Virus record (IMG/VR): IMGVR_UViG_2675903505_000004 | Length of the DNA stretch: 4,030 bases | Strand: one strand, 5' to 3' | Origin: a virus | Lineage: Duplodnaviria > Heunggongvirae > Uroviricota > Caudoviricetes | Shown here: piece after piece, positions 1-4,030 of the stretch | How positions within the stretch are numbered: position 1 is the stretch's first letter | Layout of the letters: the number at the start of each line of letters is the position of its first letter | Made by a program: the position numbers and the translations under genes | The notes under the pieces: model-generated | What the model was told of the DNA's origin: nothing | What the model saw: only the letters and a program-made list of their open reading frames with translations | Databases searched by the model: none

Positions 1-77
1 GCCACCGTGTATTTCTGGTCAACAACCAGTTGAGCGGATTCGCGTTTAAACTCTGCGCTAAAATTTCTTTTTTTCAT
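1..77 (-). CDS. insN: IS911 OrfA (InsN-like transposase regulatory/DNA-binding subunit), N-terminal 25 codons only; continues past position 1
   Basis: Revcomp of 1-77 translates [25 protein letters not shown], which matches the N-terminus of IS911 OrfA as I remember it. Start ATG is complement of 75-77. Confidence 0.8.
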
Positions 78-113
78 TGGAGCACCTGTGTTGTTCTGAG
101 GTGAGCATATCAC

Positions 114-149
114 CTCTGTTCAGGTGGCCAAATTCAGTGTGCCACTTCA
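114..149 (-). repeat. IS911-like terminal inverted repeat (IRL), 36 bp
   Basis: Revcomp of 114-149 aligns with 3971-4006 at 24 of 36 positions, including 8/8 terminal bases TGAAGTGG and a shared GGCCACC core. This is the imperfect-IR pattern typical of IS3-family ends. Confidence 0.75.
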
Positions 150-334
150 CCCATAATGGGCTTTTAATCCTATCGTTTATTGCTTGCATAGTAGAATCTA
201 ACCATCCATCACTCATAGCTAACCCTCGGAAATCTTACATTTCTGTCTATCATAACCACTAGCATCACCTTTAGGAACCATCTGAAACGGGAGGTGTATT
301 TAGACCTTGCTAATCTTAGACAGCCGCCCGGTTC

Positions 335-598
335 ATGCATCACGTCCACACAGTGAATGGTCTGAAAACATCAATGTCGCGTAAAGGTAACTGTTACGAC
401 AACGCTCCGATGGAAAGCTTCTGGGGAACGCTGAAAAATGAGAGCCTGAGCCACTATCGTTTTAATAACCGGGATGAAGCCATCTCAGTAATACGGGAAT
501 ACATTGAGATTTTCTACAATCGTCAGCGTCGTCACTCTCGTCTGGGGAATATCTCCCCGGCAGCCTTCAGGGAAAAATATCATCAGATGGCTGCTTAA
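335..598 (+). pseudogene. IS3-family transposase (OrfB, DDE integrase core) C-terminal fragment; not IS911
   Basis: Translation contains SMSRKGNCYDNAPMESFWGTLKNE and EYIEIFYNRQRRHSRLGNISP, the conserved C-terminal block around the catalytic E of IS3-family OrfB. Only about 85 codons are present; frame is open from 314 but recognisable homology begins near 345. No upstream catalytic domain, so it is a remnant. It differs from the IS911 OrfB C-terminus as I recall it (GNCWDNSPMERFF). Confidence 0.8.
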
Positions 599-838
599 AA
601 AAGAACAAATGGTAGTGTCCGCTATTGCCAGTACACCTCACAACGCCATCCTGACAAGCGTTTTATCTTCAACGGGAATGAGATATGGAAACGTGGAGAA
701 TCAACCACAGAGTATACCCGCGCACACCAGCGAACAATCAGACGACTGCGCAGACTCATCGCCAGGAAACAGTATACAGAAAAATGGTTCAGAAAATATG
801 ACACATGGAGCGCCGGATATTACGAACTGATGGCAACA
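599..838 (+). pseudogene. Possible 3' remnant of a truncated gene (79 codons, no start codon), basic C-terminal tail
   Basis: Frame +2 is open from just after the transposase-fragment stop (596-598) to TGA 836-838 and encodes ...NGNEIWKRGESTTEYTRAHQRTIRRLRRLIARKQYTEKWFRKYDTWSAGYYELMATKPF with no internal Met until the last few codons. Protein-like composition but no family recognised. Confidence 0.2.
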
Positions 839-910
839 AAACCATTCTGACGTAAACGAAATTAACCATGACGCAATTAAATAAGGCAAGCCGAATACAT
901 CAGGAGGACC

Positions 911-1099
911 ATGAACATTTATTTCAGAATAGTTATATCACTGGCAATTATCGCATGTATTTACGGATTAATCGTTCCGGCCCTCATATCAATGAAGGAT
1001 ACGGTAGCAGTGATTTCTGGCTTTGCTCTGGCGTGTCTGACCCCGCCCTGCATTTATGCCATTTATAAGGGTCTTTCTTTTTCTAAGGATAAAAGATGA
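911..1099 (+). CDS. Small membrane protein, 62 aa, two predicted TM helices with basic C-terminus
   Basis: SD-like AGGAGG at 903-908 then ATG 911. Two hydrophobic segments (RIVISLAIIACIYGLIVPALI and VAVISGFALACLTPPCIYAIY) separated by a short polar loop. Stop TGA 1097-1099 overlaps the next gene's ATG (ATGA at 1096-1099). Confidence 0.55.
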   Translation: MNIYFRIVISLAIIACIYGLIVPALISMKDTVAVISGFALACLTPPCIYAIYKGLSFSKDKR

Positions 1100-1923
1100 A
1101 AAAAGTTATTCCTGCTTTAGCCCTTGTTCTGCTGACCACCGGACTTGTCGGTTGCGATCGCGTTGAGCCTGGTAATGTTGGCATCAAGGTAAACAAACTG
1201 GGCGACGATAAAGGCGTCGGAGAAGTGGTCGGTGTTGGGCGCTACTGGACGGGATGGAACACTGAGGTTTACATCTTCCCGACCTTCAAACAAATGAAGA
1301 CCTACGATGAGCCATTCAGCTTCCAGATGAGTGACGGTACAACCATCGGCTATCACATCGGCGTGGCCTACAAAGTTGATCCATCCAAAGTTACCACAGT
1401 CTTTCAGACCTACCGCAAAGGCGTGGACGACATTACCGACACCGACCTGCGCCAGAAGATAGCCGACGCACTCAACCGACTGGCCAGCAAAATGACCACC
1501 GACAAATTTATCGACGGCGGCAAGTCTGAGCTGCTGGATGCAGCTCTTAAAGACATTCAGGAAGAAATGACGCCCATCGGTATTCAGGTAATGAGCCTCT
1601 CATATGTGGGTAAGCCGGAGTACCCGCCTACTGTTATCGACAGCATTAATGCCAAAGTCACGGCGAACCAGAAAACCCTGCAATGCGAGCAGGAAGTAAA
1701 ACAGCGCGAAGCGGAAGCCAACATGTTGCGCGCGGAAGCTGCCGGACAGGCAGATGCGATTCGCACAAAAGCCCAGGCCGAAGCCGATGCTATTCGTTTA
1801 CGCGGTGAAGCTCTGCGCCAGAACCCAAACGTTATGGAGCTGGAAGCCATCAACAAGTGGAACGGTACACTGCCGCAATACATGACCAGCGGTGCCAACA
1901 CACCATTTATTCAGGTTAAGTAA
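1096..1923 (+). CDS. SPFH/band-7 (prohibitin/HflC-like) domain lipoprotein, 275 aa, predicted inner-membrane-anchored and periplasm-facing
   Basis: N-terminus MKKVIPALALVLLTTGLVGC is a signal peptide with lipobox LVGC; the residue after the Cys is Asp (CDRVEP), the classic inner-membrane retention signal. The body has an SPFH-like core followed by an Ala/Glu/Arg-rich coiled coil (REAEANMLRAEAAGQADAIRTKAQAEADAIRLRGEA) as in HflC/HflK/prohibitin C-termini. SD AAGGA at 1085-1089. Confidence 0.8.
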   Translation: MKKVIPALALVLLTTGLVGCDRVEPGNVGIKVNKLGDDKGVGEVVGVGRYWTGWNTEVYIFPTFKQMKTYDEPFSFQMSDGTTIGYHIGVAYKVDPSKVTTVFQTYRKGVDDITDTDLRQKIADALNRLASKMTTDKFIDGGKSELLDAALKDIQEEMTPIGIQVMSLSYVGKPEYPPTVIDSINAKVTANQKTLQCEQEVKQREAEANMLRAEAAGQADAIRTKAQAEADAIRLRGEALRQNPNVMELEAINKWNGTLPQYMTSGANTPFIQVK

Positions 1924-1930
1924 TACATAT

Positions 1931-1951
1931 GCCCGGTATTACACGCCGGGC
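1931..1951 (+). promoter_or_regulatory. GC-rich stem-loop in the SPFH to ORF6N intergenic region (6-bp stem GCCCGG/CCGGGC, 9-nt loop)
   Basis: Inverted repeat at 1931-1936 and 1946-1951 read directly from the sequence. It is not followed by a T-run, so it is more likely an RNA processing or stability element, or a partial attenuator, than an intrinsic terminator. Confidence 0.3.
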
Positions 1952-1966
1952 TGTCTGGAGATAAAA

Positions 1967-2716
1967 ATGAATACTGTAACCATCAACAACAAACAGTTTC
2001 CGGTAATCGAATATCGCGGTCAGCGTGTTGTGACGCTGGCGATGATTGATGAAGTCCACCAGCGACCGGAAGGAACCGCGCGTGCAGCATTCAACCGAAA
2101 CCGTGAGCATTTCATCAGCGGTGTGGATTATGCCGAATTAGGTGCGGACGTAATACGTACGGACCTCCCGGAAGGAACATTCTCTAAATTTGCACCATCG
2201 GGGATTGTACTTTTTGAATCAGGTTACCTGATGTTGACGAAGCCATTCAATGACGCCCTTGCCTGGCAGGTTCAGCGCGAACTGGTTAACAGCTACTTCC
2301 GCACTCGCACACCGCTAACGGAAATCGAGATGATCGCTGCGATAGCCGCCGACGCTGTTCGTCAACAGAAGCGCCTGAATCATGTGGAAGAACAGCTCGA
2401 AACAGTCACAGAAGCGGTGGAAACCATCAAACGCGGAAATATGCGCGCCGGATATGTCGGTTACCGCCAGGTGGTAGCCAAAAGTGGAATGAGTGACACC
2501 AAGTGTCGGAATCTGGTGAACGCATATCAAATTCCTACAGACACCCACGAATTCATGACTCCGGACGGTCTGTTGTCTCGCAGGGCTATCGTCGAGCTTG
2601 AGCCATTTATGGCGGCGTTCCACCAAATGATGTCAGAGGCTGACCCACGCGGCACACGCTGGTATCACCCGAAGATGGGGCTTTTCCAGGTGATCGGATG
2701 GGAGGATAAAGCATGA
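1967..2716 (+). CDS. ORF6N/KilA-N-like DNA-binding domain protein (phage antirepressor-like N-domain) with coiled-coil middle and uncharacterised C-terminal domain, 249 aa
   Basis: Start chosen at ATG 1967 (GGAG at 1957-1960, 6-nt spacer) rather than the upstream in-frame ATG 1892 that overlaps the SPFH gene. N-terminus MNTVTINNKQFPVIEYRGQRVVTLAMIDEVHQRPEGTARAAFNRNREHFISGVDYAEL fits the ORF6N/KilA-N pattern. Stop TGA 2714-2716 overlaps the next ATG 2713 (ATGA). Confidence 0.65.
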   Translation: MNTVTINNKQFPVIEYRGQRVVTLAMIDEVHQRPEGTARAAFNRNREHFISGVDYAELGADVIRTDLPEGTFSKFAPSGIVLFESGYLMLTKPFNDALAWQVQRELVNSYFRTRTPLTEIEMIAAIAADAVRQQKRLNHVEEQLETVTEAVETIKRGNMRAGYVGYRQVVAKSGMSDTKCRNLVNAYQIPTDTHEFMTPDGLLSRRAIVELEPFMAAFHQMMSEADPRGTRWYHPKMGLFQVIGWEDKA

Positions 2717-3282
2717 TCATCCAGTCAAAACTTATTCGCGCCGCTCTGGTGTGCGCTGCTAAAAACGACGTTCGTTATTACCTGAACGGTCTTCACATCA
2801 CGCCGAAACATATTGAGGCAACCAATGGTTCCGTGGCACTGCGCATGGCTCACGGCATCCGGACGAAGAAAAACATCATTGTCCAGTTCGAAGGGGGCGT
2901 CCCGGCCAAAGCCGAAACGACAGAGCTGATTTTTAGTAAAGAGCCGATCGCTGTTCATCGCGACCAGTTTCAGCGACGACTGTCCATTACCGGCATTAAA
3001 CTGGTGGACGGTTGTTTTCCGGATTTGGATCGCATCATTCCGAAAAAGTTTGACCGCTGTACTCACCCGGTGCTCCAGGCGGGTTACCTGAGTTATCCAG
3101 AGAAGATGTTTGGTCGTGAGCGTAAATTTATTCCCGTCCAGTTACGTCCCTCCGGTGACGGGCAAGCGGTCAGAATTCAGTTTGATTCCATCATCAACTC
3201 AATGTATGGCAATCCTGAATTTGTTGTGATGCCTTGTCGTGATCATGGCGATTTCAACGTGGCTCAGGAGCATCCGGAATGA
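2713..3282 (+). CDS. DNA polymerase III beta sliding clamp (DnaN) domain II-III-like protein; truncated clamp homolog lacking domain I, 189 aa
   Basis: Three blocks align with E. coli DnaN as recalled: AKNDVRYYLNGLHI vs AHQDVRYYLNGMLF (domain II), IKLVDGCFPDLDRIIPKK vs SKLVDGRFPDYRRVLPKN (domain II/III junction), and EFVVMPCR vs AYVVMPMRL (extreme C-terminus). The domain III equivalent is shortened. Own SD GGAGGA at 2701-2706. Stop TGA 3280-3282 overlaps the next ATG 3279. Confidence 0.65.
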   Translation: MIIQSKLIRAALVCAAKNDVRYYLNGLHITPKHIEATNGSVALRMAHGIRTKKNIIVQFEGGVPAKAETTELIFSKEPIAVHRDQFQRRLSITGIKLVDGCFPDLDRIIPKKFDRCTHPVLQAGYLSYPEKMFGRERKFIPVQLRPSGDGQAVRIQFDSIINSMYGNPEFVVMPCRDHGDFNVAQEHPE

Positions 3283-3401
3283 AAATCGAATACCAGGACG
3301 CCGCAGGAGGTGAATCAATGAGCTGGCCTGATGCAATCGTAACTCTGGGGATGGTATTCGCAGTAGCGTTTGTTGTGTACTCGATTTGTCGATGGGGATA
3401 A
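3279..3401 (+). CDS. Tiny single-TM membrane peptide (40 aa from ATG 3279; alternative start ATG 3318 gives 27 aa)
   Basis: Not in the supplied ORF track (too short). Translation MKIEYQDAAGGESMSWPDAIVTLGMVFAVAFVVYSICRWG, stop TAA 3399-3401. ATG 3279 is ATGA-coupled to the clamp-like gene with AGGAG at 3266-3270; the internal ATG 3318 is preceded by a strong AGGAGG at 3305-3310. Hydrophobic core LGMVFAVAFVVYSI. Confidence 0.3.
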   Translation: MKIEYQDAAGGESMSWPDAIVTLGMVFAVAFVVYSICRWG

Positions 3402-3405
3402 CCAC

Positions 3406-3648
3406 ATGTTCGCTTTGATTCAACGCGGGCAGATATACACAGACAGAGCCGGATACCCAGTAGAAATTACTCGCAGTACTGAGCACTCAGTGTTCTTTCG
3501 GAGGATGGACGGACGTACCGGGCGAGTACGCATCGGTGAATTCAGTAGCCTGTTCGAGCATATTGACCACCTGGAATATCACAAGATTCTGGCTGAAACA
3601 GAACAAGAAAAGCACCTGAAGAAATTACGCGCAATGCAAAGGAAGTAA
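3406..3648 (+). CDS. Small phage-type protein, DUF4222-like, 80 aa
   Basis: Start ATG 3406 (MFALIQRGQIYTDRAGYPVEITRSTEHSVFFRRMDGRTGRVRIGEFSSLFEHID...) preferred over the track's ATG 3370, which would overlap the upstream peptide. The spacing of YxDxxG, V.IT, V.F.RR and GEF...F resembles DUF4222 proteins from lambdoid prophages as I recall them. Stop TAA 3646-3648. Confidence 0.45.
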   Translation: MFALIQRGQIYTDRAGYPVEITRSTEHSVFFRRMDGRTGRVRIGEFSSLFEHIDHLEYHKILAETEQEKHLKKLRAMQRK

Positions 3649-3651
3649 AAA

Positions 3652-3798
3652 ATGAATAAAGCGTTTGAGCTATGGGTCCACCAGCGTTACGGCAACCACT
3701 ACGACCTGACGCGAGATGTTGACGGTTTCTACTGTCGTGAAATTGTGAAACGAATGTTTGAGGTCTGGTGCCACTGCCGTGGGCTGAGTGTTGTGTGA
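3652..3798 (+). CDS. Small Cys/His-containing protein, 48 aa
   Basis: Not in the supplied ORF track. SD AGGAAG at 3638-3643, then ATG 3652, only 3 nt after the upstream stop. Translation MNKAFELWVHQRYGNHYDLTRDVDGFYCREIVKRMFEVWCHCRGLSVV, stop TGA 3796-3798. Possible metal ligands C28, C40, H41, C42. Confidence 0.3.
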   Translation: MNKAFELWVHQRYGNHYDLTRDVDGFYCREIVKRMFEVWCHCRGLSVV

Positions 3799-3806
3799 GG
3801 TAATGC

Positions 3807-4004
3807 ATGGGCAATGTGATTCAACTGGCTCCCAATGAATGGGTTTGTGAAAGCGTTCTAATCGCAATTACCGGGCTCAAACCAGGCACAATTCTTCGGA
3901 CCCGGAAAGAATGCTGGATGGTTGGAAGAGAGTATATTCACGTATCACCAGACGGTAATCCAAAGCCTTCTGAAGTGGTCAACAAAAACTGGCCACCGAG
4001 TTAG
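3807..4004 (+). CDS. Excisionase-like (phage Xis/DUF1233-like) protein, 3' end disrupted by IS911-like insertion; chimeric ORF whose last 10 codons and stop are IS-derived
   Basis: SD GAGG at 3797-3800 then ATG 3807. Translation MGNVIQLAPNEWVCESVLIAITGLKPGTILRTRKECWMVGREYIHVSPDGNPKPS resembles excisionase-like small DNA-binding proteins of lambdoid prophages (recalled motif TGLKPGTI...RK.CWM.GREY.H..PDGNPKP). From codon 3972 onward the reading frame lies inside the IS inverted repeat (EVVNKNWPPS, then stop). Confidence 0.5.
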   Translation: MGNVIQLAPNEWVCESVLIAITGLKPGTILRTRKECWMVGREYIHVSPDGNPKPSEVVNKNWPPS

Positions 4005-4006
4005 AG
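3971..4006 (-). repeat. IS911-like terminal inverted repeat (IRR), 36 bp
   Basis: 24 of 36 positions identical to the revcomp of 114-149, including the terminal TGAAGTGG and the GGCCACC core. Confidence 0.75.
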
Positions 4007-4030
4007 TTTTTCCAGTATCGATTTTCCGAT
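3971..4030 (-). mobile_element. IS911-like (IS3 family) insertion sequence, partial: IRR end; element body continues beyond window end
   Basis: 3971-4006 reads TGAAGTGGTCAACAAAAACTGGCCACCGAGTTAGAG, the imperfect inverted-repeat partner of the element end at 114-149. The outer tip is at 3971 and the body extends rightward, so the element is in the same (minus) orientation as the left copy. Confidence 0.75.

Follow-up and report, generated by a model that had tools for sequence, protein, structure and literature searches.

A segment of DNA with an insertion-sequence end at either edge raises the question of whether two copies of the element bracket a mobile unit or whether something else has produced this picture. 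The stretch of 4,030 nucleotides analysed here (hereafter the window) has an IS911-like terminus at each side of a group of prophage genes (Table 1), and the original prediction had been that the cargo lies between IS911 copies in direct repeat, as in a composite transposon or a translocatable unit. The window is identical to the complete draft contig LAHX01000239.1 (4,030 bp; assembly GCA_001017165.1), a short-read draft contig whose source is a Shigella flexneri-type genome. We have compared it with seven finished chromosomes, representatives of the 25 contigs read.

Table 1. Features of the window, in order of position.
Feature	Position	Strand	Basis or remark
IS911 IRL end	1..149	-	36-bp IRL 114-149, tip 149; 100% identical to L001 8416-8564 (annotated IS911) and L005 11265-11413
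orfA of IS911	start 77, leftward off contig	-	reading frame
End of a different element integrated mid-yecE	150..312	-	99.5% identical to E. coli NT1F10 (L003 5001-5163)
yecE (DUF72), 45-bp internal fragment	313..357	+	matches L002 11451-11495 inside DUF72 CDS
Blunt join of yecE' to IS600 position 981	357..358	.	sole link setting IRL end left of cargo
IS600 3' 283 bp (positions 981-1264), OrfB C-terminus	358..640	+	right tip 640; 99.6% alignment to IS600 981-1264
Lambdoid (phiP27-like) prophage early-left module	641..3970	+	Pfam and collinear prophages
62-aa membrane protein	911-1099	+	ORF
SPFH/Band 7 lipoprotein	1096-1923	+	Pfam
ORF6N-domain protein	1967-2716	+	Pfam
189-aa protein	2713-3282	+	ORF
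ORF	3279-3401	+	ORF
DUF4222 protein	3406-3648	+	Pfam
ORF	3652-3798	+	ORF
xis' (DUF1233 excisionase, cut at codon 55)	3807-3970	+	Pfam
IS911 IRR end	3971..4030	-	36-bp IRR 3971-4006, tip 3971; body rightward off contig; 100% identical to L005 10165-10224

Identity of the IS911 ends and of the copy they belong to

The left terminus, IRL, is TGAAGTGGCACACTGAATTTGGCCACCTGAACAGAG (the reverse complement of window 114-149) and the right one, IRR, is TGAAGTGGTCAACAAAAACTGGCCACCGAGTTAGAG (window 3971-4006); 24 of their 36 positions agree, among them those of the 8-bp tip TGAAGTGG and of a GGCCACC block. Window 1-149 and 3971-4030 match the ends of the annotated IS911 of E. coli FDAARGOS_944 (named in RefSeq 'IS3-like element IS911 family transposase') at 100% and 98.3%, respectively, and the IS911 copy of the finished chromosomes matches both at its ends with 100% identity. 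Because these matches to a known element are long and exact, the resemblance is, judged by sequence comparison, not a matter of chance. With orfA running leftward and the end of orfB, likewise on the minus strand, situated rightward of 3971, both bodies are minus-oriented and extend outside the window, which itself holds just 149 nt and 60 nt of the element. In all of this (inverted-repeat partners with tips at 149 and 3971, both elements minus-oriented with bodies pointing outward) the original prediction was correct.

IS911 is a member of the IS3 family, transposes by a copy-out/paste-in route and was first described in Shigella dysenteriae. In the finished genomes the full copy ends in 36-bp imperfect inverted repeats tipped 5'-TG...CA-3'. 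Its OrfA is 100 aa long, an A6G slippery site lies at position 324 and the long orfB is read in the -1 frame; the copy shares 99.0% identity with a RefSeq-annotated IS911 that bears the 'programmed frameshift' mark. Its 389-aa transposase (read in L006 and L007) contains HTH_Tnp_1 (PF01527), rve (PF00665) and PF13683. The copy therefore has the length, the inverted repeats, the orfA/orfB frameshift and the HTH_Tnp_1 and rve domains of IS911, and departs from it only in its target site: whereas a 3-bp duplication is usual at a simple IS911 insertion, and an independent copy in FDAARGOS_944 has GTA on both sides, none is found at this copy, which is flanked by TTC on the IRR side and CCC on the IRL side. 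Such a lack is expected after a later deletion or recombination and is no argument against the identity of the element. The original prediction had looked to these flanks, extended beyond the window, for the target-site duplications of two full copies; in the finished chromosomes they turn out to belong to a single one.

A circular permutation of a chromosomal stretch

In every finished chromosome read, a single IS911 separates window 358-4030 from window 1-357; it measures 1,249 bp from IRR tip to IRL tip in five of the seven, 1,247 bp in one and 3,519 bp in another that contains an intron. The identity is 99.9-100% throughout, the two parts corresponding in L005 to 6552-10224 and 11265-11621, respectively. 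The chromosomal order is: an inverted lambdoid Q/RusA region, a full IS600, the 3.3-kb prophage early-left module, xis', one minus-strand IS911, a 208-bp remnant, the remaining yecE', yecN, cmoA and cmoB (in the finished chromosome CP026788.1, within the region 377,295-397,492). LAHX01000239.1 is a circular permutation of a 5,070-bp stretch of this chromosome. The cargo between the two IS911 ends is not homogeneous, as window 150-357 derives from the far side of the same IS911.

This 208-bp remnant has two parts, the end of a second element integrated in yecE and 45 bp of yecE itself. Window 150-216 encodes, on the minus strand, the first 22 codons of a 277-aa hypothetical gene that is interrupted by IS911, and 217-312 is the upstream or border DNA of that gene; no Pfam family was found for the element at 150-312, whose counterpart in E. 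coli NT1F10 adjoins a 5'-truncated DUF72/yecE. In the finished chromosomes window 313-357 continues into yecE'-yecN-cmoA-cmoB; the L005 copy of window 1-357 (100%), for example, is followed by DUF72 and MAPEG genes, and the yecE' sequence ending in GTGAA continues in the reference chromosome as GCTATTCGCG. An apparent break after window 336 in L012 reflects divergence or noise in that record and not an insertion.

On the other side of the locus, the left border of the prophage module is an IS600 with its tip at window 640. The finished chromosomes contain this IS600 at full length (L005 5572-6834), with the left flank GCGGGTACCATAT|TGAGGTAGCC; the window holds positions 981-1264 alone, and rve_3 and rve_2 are the Pfam domains detected at 358-640. 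The module itself is collinear, at 93-95%, with prophages at yecE or mlrA (E. coli, EIEC) that run on into an intact xis-int, and it has a 92% match to phiP27 over part of its length. With the phiP27-like and Stx-phage-like lambdoid prophages found at yecE in EIEC and E. coli it shares the gene order SPFH lipoprotein, ORF6N, 189-aa protein, DUF4222, xis and, next to yecE, int. In contrast to them, the module seen here is a remnant, cut on the left by IS600 and on the right by IS911, with int gone. The proposal that the IS911 pair had severed the module from both flanks therefore holds on the right, where IS911 lies in xis, but not on the left, where the border is IS600.

The join at 357/358 and its possible origins

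It is because of the 357/358 join alone that the window appears to be bracketed by IS911. The join is blunt, attaching the yecE fragment directly to IS600 position 981. No microhomology or shared k-mer of the kind that might account for a mis-join in a de Bruijn graph was found at it, the longest word shared within 150 bp on either side being 8 nt and off the join. A 40-mer across it has zero matches in genome_contigs and metagenome_contigs, and the 87-aa ORF that spans it occurs in LAHX01000239.1 only. A sibling contig of the same assembly, LAHX01000141.1, begins at the same IS911 base and shares window 1-333, followed by an extra C and then by IS600 base 981, making its junction 24 bp shorter; it leaves IS600 into yciI-tonB-yciABC. 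To judge from these two sequences, at least one of the joins must be wrong. Position 981 of IS600 has the look of a node boundary in the assembly; as a natural breakpoint it was not seen in ten loci with the 74-aa IS600 tail ORF, where IS600 breaks at 976 and 989-994 (E. coli) and never at 981. A search of E. coli genomes for the yciI-IS600 junction of the sibling contig found an IS600 near yciI in two of them, which says little about Shigella.

In our assessment the window is quite likely a permuted draft contig that carries the two ends of one IS911, and not an IS911-bracketed composite transposon; the 357/358 join is probably an artefact of assembly or scaffolding, as opposed to an event specific to the strain. 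This assessment builds on direct observations: the finished genomes have a single copy, the contig is permuted relative to them, its join was seen nowhere else, a sibling contig conflicts with that join, and the IS911 copy has no target duplication. The contig would have broken inside IS911 on both sides because this multicopy repeat could not be crossed by the assembler, and the first 357 bases, whose proper place is on the right of IS911, would have been joined instead to the left side of the IS600 3' end; with these bases misplaced, the two IS911 ends would be those of one copy. Repeat-induced breaks and mis-joins in short-read assemblies have the same features: contig ends that fall within a multicopy IS, here by 149 nt and 60 nt, and a 333-bp piece used twice with both joins at one position of another multicopy IS. 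In other drafts, contigs with the IRL junction are mostly 10-20 kb long (255 blocks) and those with the xis' junction mostly 2-5 kb (238 blocks); the one IRL-junction contig read (L023) continues into yecE'-yecN-cmoAB. Scaffold KN150717.1 (L020), considered as an alternative arrangement, was discarded as merely contigs parted by 100 Ns. More generally, a short draft contig edged by IS ends on both sides usually reflects an assembly break at a multicopy repeat and calls for caution, and a permuted or mis-joined contig is able to mimic a composite transposon.

Some features of the locus fit an artefact less well. Random chimeras rarely join points just 5 kb apart, which counts against it, and an exact head-to-tail permutation of a contiguous 5,070 bp is also to be expected from a true tandem duplication or an excised circle. 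Moreover, both LAHX contigs exit yecE' at 333-357 rather than continuing into yecE, and the strain may differ for real at that point.

The local 5-kb head-to-tail permutation, less typical of random chimeras, leaves room for a real tandem duplication of the 5,070-bp segment (the IS600 part from 981 on, the cargo, xis', IS911 and the 208-bp piece), which we nevertheless regard as unlikely. Illegitimate recombination of IS600 980/981 with yecE' would have produced it, and its two direct IS911 copies would be products of the duplication and not independent insertions. An exact circular permutation with a same-strand join is the signature of such an event, the joined points are merely 5 kb apart, and there is a precedent at the locus, CP026788.1 having torZ...yecE'-208 bp-IS911 twice, 17.6 kb apart. 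Against this, the junction is present in one assembly only, that same assembly has a second junction to the same IS600 base with another exit flank, leaving the path through IS600 ambiguous, and microhomology is lacking at 357/358. A 5.07-kb head-to-tail amplification or circle of the prophage remnant plus IS911, formed in the GCA_001017165.1 isolate by homology-free recombination of IS600 981 with yecE', is similarly unlikely. If the amplification were true, two direct IS911 copies would surround the SPFH/ORF6N module and make it prone to further amplification or loss.

Less probable again is a real rearrangement in this strain that joins yecE' to a truncated IS600 by yciI, as in LAHX01000141.1, with LAHX01000239.1 taking the wrong IS600 exit. 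The sibling contig does have the same 208-bp piece on IS600 981-1264 and then yciI-tonB, and neither LAHX contig continues into yecE'. Such a rearrangement, however, requires yecE and the yciI region to have recombined illegitimately, although the two loci are widely separated on the map of E. coli K-12, and the junctions of the two contigs differ.

An extrachromosomal circle of 5,070 bp, made up of the cargo, one IS911 and the 208-bp piece and abundant enough to assemble, would yield the same permuted contig with one IS copy, but we think it very improbable: the segment is without a replication gene or origin, xis is truncated and int absent, and the 357/358 junction has no IS tip and is not that of an IS911 or IS600 transposition circle; furthermore, no plasmid record matches and the sibling contig conflicts. 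A plasmid or other small replicon was rejected as well, since no plasmid sequence with IS911 on either side of the segment matched it at >94% identity, and the segment lacks a replication function. The original prediction had conceded that a single IS copy on a small circular replicon would look the same; a single copy does indeed give this picture, and its source is the permuted contig and not such a replicon. One-ended transposition of IS911 with a surrogate end, suggested by a faint likeness of TGAA followed by TGGTCTGAAAAC at the join to the IRR tip TGAAGTGGTCAACAAAAAC, was also rejected, the join being 208 bp from the IRL tip with no IS tip involved.

The proposal least able to survive is that two independently inserted direct copies of IS911 flank a 3.8-kb cargo as a composite transposon or translocatable unit; we give it almost no credence, even though the contig topology alone would suggest it, IS911 is multicopy in these genomes and another direct copy lies ~17 kb away in CP026788.1. 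In all cargo-bearing finished chromosomes read, the left neighbour of the cargo is a full IS600 and the right one a single IS911, beyond which 208 bp of the supposed cargo are located; the module is seen at the yecE locus only with no exact copy on plasmids, and the inner flanks, TTC and CCC, show no sign of paired insertions. The sole likeness to composite transposons of the Tn10/Tn5 type and to IS26-type translocatable units is that, in the contig, a short segment has an IS end at either side. Composite transposons have two complete copies of the same IS, and they are found at varied sites or with an outer target duplication, whereas the module here was found in the yecE-linked context only, with no second IS911 copy that could give an outer duplication. 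IS911, an IS3-family element, is not known to form IS26-style translocatable units, and the junction of such a unit or of an IS3-family circle lies at the IS termini, unlike 357/358, which is 208 bp from the IRL tip and at an internal IS600 position.

IS911 as a scar of rearrangement

The single IS911 of the finished chromosomes has a history of its own at this locus. It sits in xis, where it cuts the excisionase, and the sequence beyond its IRL lacks the remainder of xis, int and half of yecE. This loss, together with the lack of a target duplication, indicates that the IS911 copy is a rearrangement scar, left by an IS911-mediated adjacent deletion or by recombination between two IS911 copies. 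Adjacent deletions and inter-IS recombination in the decay of Shigella genomes likewise involve outward loss from one IS tip with the IS kept and no target duplication; this is their textbook outcome and nothing unusual. As the IS-driven genome decay of Shigella is already well documented, the IS911 case adds nothing new in kind.

The original prediction had also suggested that recombination between the IS pair could delete the cargo, and had recommended a comparison with related strains. That comparison bore out IS-driven loss of the cargo, though the IS pair itself found no support: in other strains further deletions begin exactly at the IRR tip and remove the cargo, over 4,547 bp in one (L017) and 5,060 bp in two (L018 and L021). 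One IS911 thus truncates the prophage excisionase, deletes int and locks in the remnant, and in some strains later adjacent deletions remove the remnant itself.

The IS911 ends and their chromosomal counterparts

The two termini of the original prediction, with tips at 149 and 3971, do belong to IS911: the ends of the IS911 of E. coli FDAARGOS_944, which RefSeq annotates as an 'IS3-like element IS911 family transposase', match window 1-149 at 100% and 3971-4030 at 98.3% identity. As predicted, they are inverted-repeat partners, equal at 24 of 36 positions (the 8-bp tip among them), and both elements are minus-oriented; orfA starts at 77 on the minus strand and heads leftward, and both IS911 bodies lie outside the window.

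The entire window is the complete 4,030-bp draft contig LAHX01000239.1 (assembly GCA_001017165.1), found by looking up the ORF across 357/358, and the flanks beyond it were taken from finished genomes. The accessions compared (CP026788, CP012137, CP020086 and others) we take to be S. flexneri; the records carrying names are Shigella flexneri SFBU1023 and 'E. coli' ECMA0423. With respect to our reference locus L005 (CP026788.1 377,295-397,492), window 358-4030 corresponds to 6552-10224 (99.9-100% identity in seven finished chromosomes) and window 1-357 to 11265-11621 (100%). Because the IRR and IRL tips are only 1,249 bp apart there (in five of the seven; 1,247 bp in one and 3,519 bp in another, which has an intron), the two ends in the window belong there to a single IS911 copy. 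This chromosomal element has a 100-aa OrfA, an A6G slippery site at position 324, orfB in another frame, HTH_Tnp_1 and rve domains, and 99.0% identity to the annotated E. coli copy. In CP020086.1 (L010 10165-13683) a group II intron of 2,270 bp, with an RVT_1/GIIM ORF and a 64.9-bit match to Rfam Intron_gpII, splits it after IS911 position 762.

Read in window orientation, the chromosomes carry, in order, Q and RusA (minus strand) – full IS600 (L005 5572-6834) – prophage module – xis' – IS911 (minus) – 208-bp piece – rest of yecE' (DUF72) – yecN, cmoA, cmoB and torZ. Among other drafts, the IRL junction is mostly on contigs of 10-20 kb (255 blocks) and the xis' junction on contigs of 2-5 kb (238 blocks), the pattern expected of a single IS911. 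One IRL-junction draft contig (L023) continues into yecE'-yecN-cmoAB, and the 65-aa ORF running from xis' into IRR is present in numerous assemblies, among them 39 collection blocks whose contigs exceed 1 Mb.

The join at 357/358

Apart from the absent middle of IS911, the window corresponds exactly to the 5,070-bp stretch L005 6552-11621 in circularly permuted form. Its only novel adjacency, yecE' ...CACAGTGAA / TGGTCTGAAAAC..., falls at IS600 position 981 and has no microhomology. The 87-aa ORF spanning it is recorded in LAHX01000239.1 alone, and a 40-mer across it had zero matches in species-representative genomes and JGI metagenomes. The 52-aa ORF that crosses the IRL junction is also found in another contig from this assembly, LAHX01000141.1 (59,426 bp), which has the same IS911 starting base as the window, is identical through window 333, and then enters IS600 at that same base, 981, through a junction of its own (...CCCGGT-C-TGGTCTG...) with 24 further yecE bases missing. 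Its IS600-tail A-run has one extra A relative to the window's, and it leaves IS600 into yciI-tonB-yciA-yciB-yciC, not the prophage module.

Since a single-copy 333-bp piece cannot adjoin both flanks, at least one of these two contigs is mis-joined, and the IS600 coordinate shared by two different junctions suggests that the boundary of an assembly-graph node, not a biological breakpoint, lies there. We consider it quite probable that the real genome has no pair of IS911 copies around the module. Neither contig runs on into yecE', so there may nevertheless be a real difference in the isolate at this gene. A genuine 5.07-kb tandem duplication would equally produce a head-to-tail join of two points just 5 kb apart, as would an in-vitro circularisation (mate-pair) artefact; we regard the duplication as unlikely. 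An excised circle would leave the same join and is more doubtful still; as a transposon circle or translocatable unit, the latter also originally predicted, it founders on a novel junction that involves no IS tip. Little probability likewise attaches to a rearrangement with the yciI-side IS600. The composite transposon of the original prediction is also improbable and falls at its first defining feature, two copies of the same IS flanking the cargo: the finished chromosomes compared that carry the module have a single IS911, with the full IS600 on the other side of the module.

At window 354-372, TGAA/TGGTCTGAAAAC is loosely similar to the tip of the IS911 IRR, TGAAGTGGTCAACAAAAAC; with no IS tip participating in the join, this was taken as coincidence.

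Composition of the predicted cargo

The sequence between the two IS911 ends is a mosaic of several origins.

Features of the window, in window coordinates
Feature	Position	Strand	Remarks
IS911 IRL	114-149 (tip 149)	minus (body)	reverse complement TGAAGTGGCACACTGAATTTGGCCACCTGAACAGAG
Border of a different element integrated mid-yecE	150-312		99.5% identity to E. coli NT1F10
First 22 codons of a 277-aa hypothetical gene	150-216	minus	
Internal yecE fragment	313-357		45 bp
IS600 positions 981-1264	358-640		
phiP27-like early-left module	641-3970		
IS911 IRR	3971-4006 (tip 3971)	minus (body)	reads TGAAGTGGTCAACAAAAACTGGCCACCGAGTTAGAG

The module encodes a small membrane protein, an SPFH/Band 7 lipoprotein, an ORF6N-domain protein, a 189-aa protein, a DUF4222 protein and a DUF1233 excisionase (xis') cut at codon 55; in E. 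coli and EIEC the same module runs into intact xis and int beside yecE or mlrA. RefSeq labels the 189-aa ORF (2713-3282) 'beta clamp domain-containing protein'; its Pfam DNA_pol3_beta_2 match covers residues 6-33 only, at E=0.007, below cut-off, so that it may be a prophage clamp-like protein neighbouring the ORF6N one.

SFBU1023 (L012 2627-3406) and ECMA0423 (L013) carry a ~780-bp insertion with IS1-like ends at window 1087-1095, where a 62-aa ORF ends and the SPFH gene starts, with ~9 bp duplicated. SFBU1023 also diverges from all other chromosomes over ~35 bp of yecE' (L012 7727-7760), with scattered differences beyond, which looks like assembly consensus noise and not biology.

Rearrangement scars and recurrent deletions

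Neither IS is flanked by a target duplication (a 3-bp one was sought at IS911: TTC on the IRR side versus CCC on the IRL side; for IS600, TAT versus CAA). Both are scars of rearrangement, not simple insertions. An independent IS911 in FDAARGOS_944 xisR, which served as positive control, has GTA on both sides. The most likely history would begin with insertion of IS911 into xis; int, the remainder of xis, the 5' half of yecE and the bulk of the second element would then have been lost, either in an adjacent deletion driven by this IS911 or when it recombined with another IS911 copy.

Three finished chromosomes of other strains, in which the same IS911 has acted again, lack the whole module, with or without most of IS600: CP026871.1 lacks L005 5618-10164, and LR213452.1 and CP026776.1 lack 5105-10164. 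All three deletions begin exactly at the IRR tip and are nested IS911 adjacent deletions, by which the module is being lost repeatedly. Loss of the cargo through IS activity thus survives from the original prediction, with one copy at work and not recombination between two. In CP026788.1 the segment torZ-cmoB-cmoA-yecN-yecE'-208 bp-IS911 is present twice in direct orientation, ~17.6 kb apart (L005 and L016, 365,367-371,525), the second copy having an HD-domain gene, flhB and flhA on the IRR side in place of xis'; IS911 copies seem to have mediated a duplication here.

All these parts are ordinary and of known kinds: IS911 and IS600 are both IS3 family members, the deletions are like other IS-mediated deletions in Shigella, the module is a lambdoid prophage remnant at yecE, and the contig reflects repeat-induced breaks.

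The independent FDAARGOS_944 IS911 (L001 7316-8564) has the same orientation and belongs to a related prophage at mlrA, where its site is ~7 codons upstream of the one in Shigella; the xisR excisionase is 55% identical to the window's xis' gene (3807-3970). That homologous xis genes were hit at sites only ~20 bp from each other may point to a target preference of IS911. EIEC strains (RMDEC364, L002 5274-6537) have a full IS600 at another site in the same module, with window 910-912 duplicated; given this different site, IS600 has entered the module at least twice.
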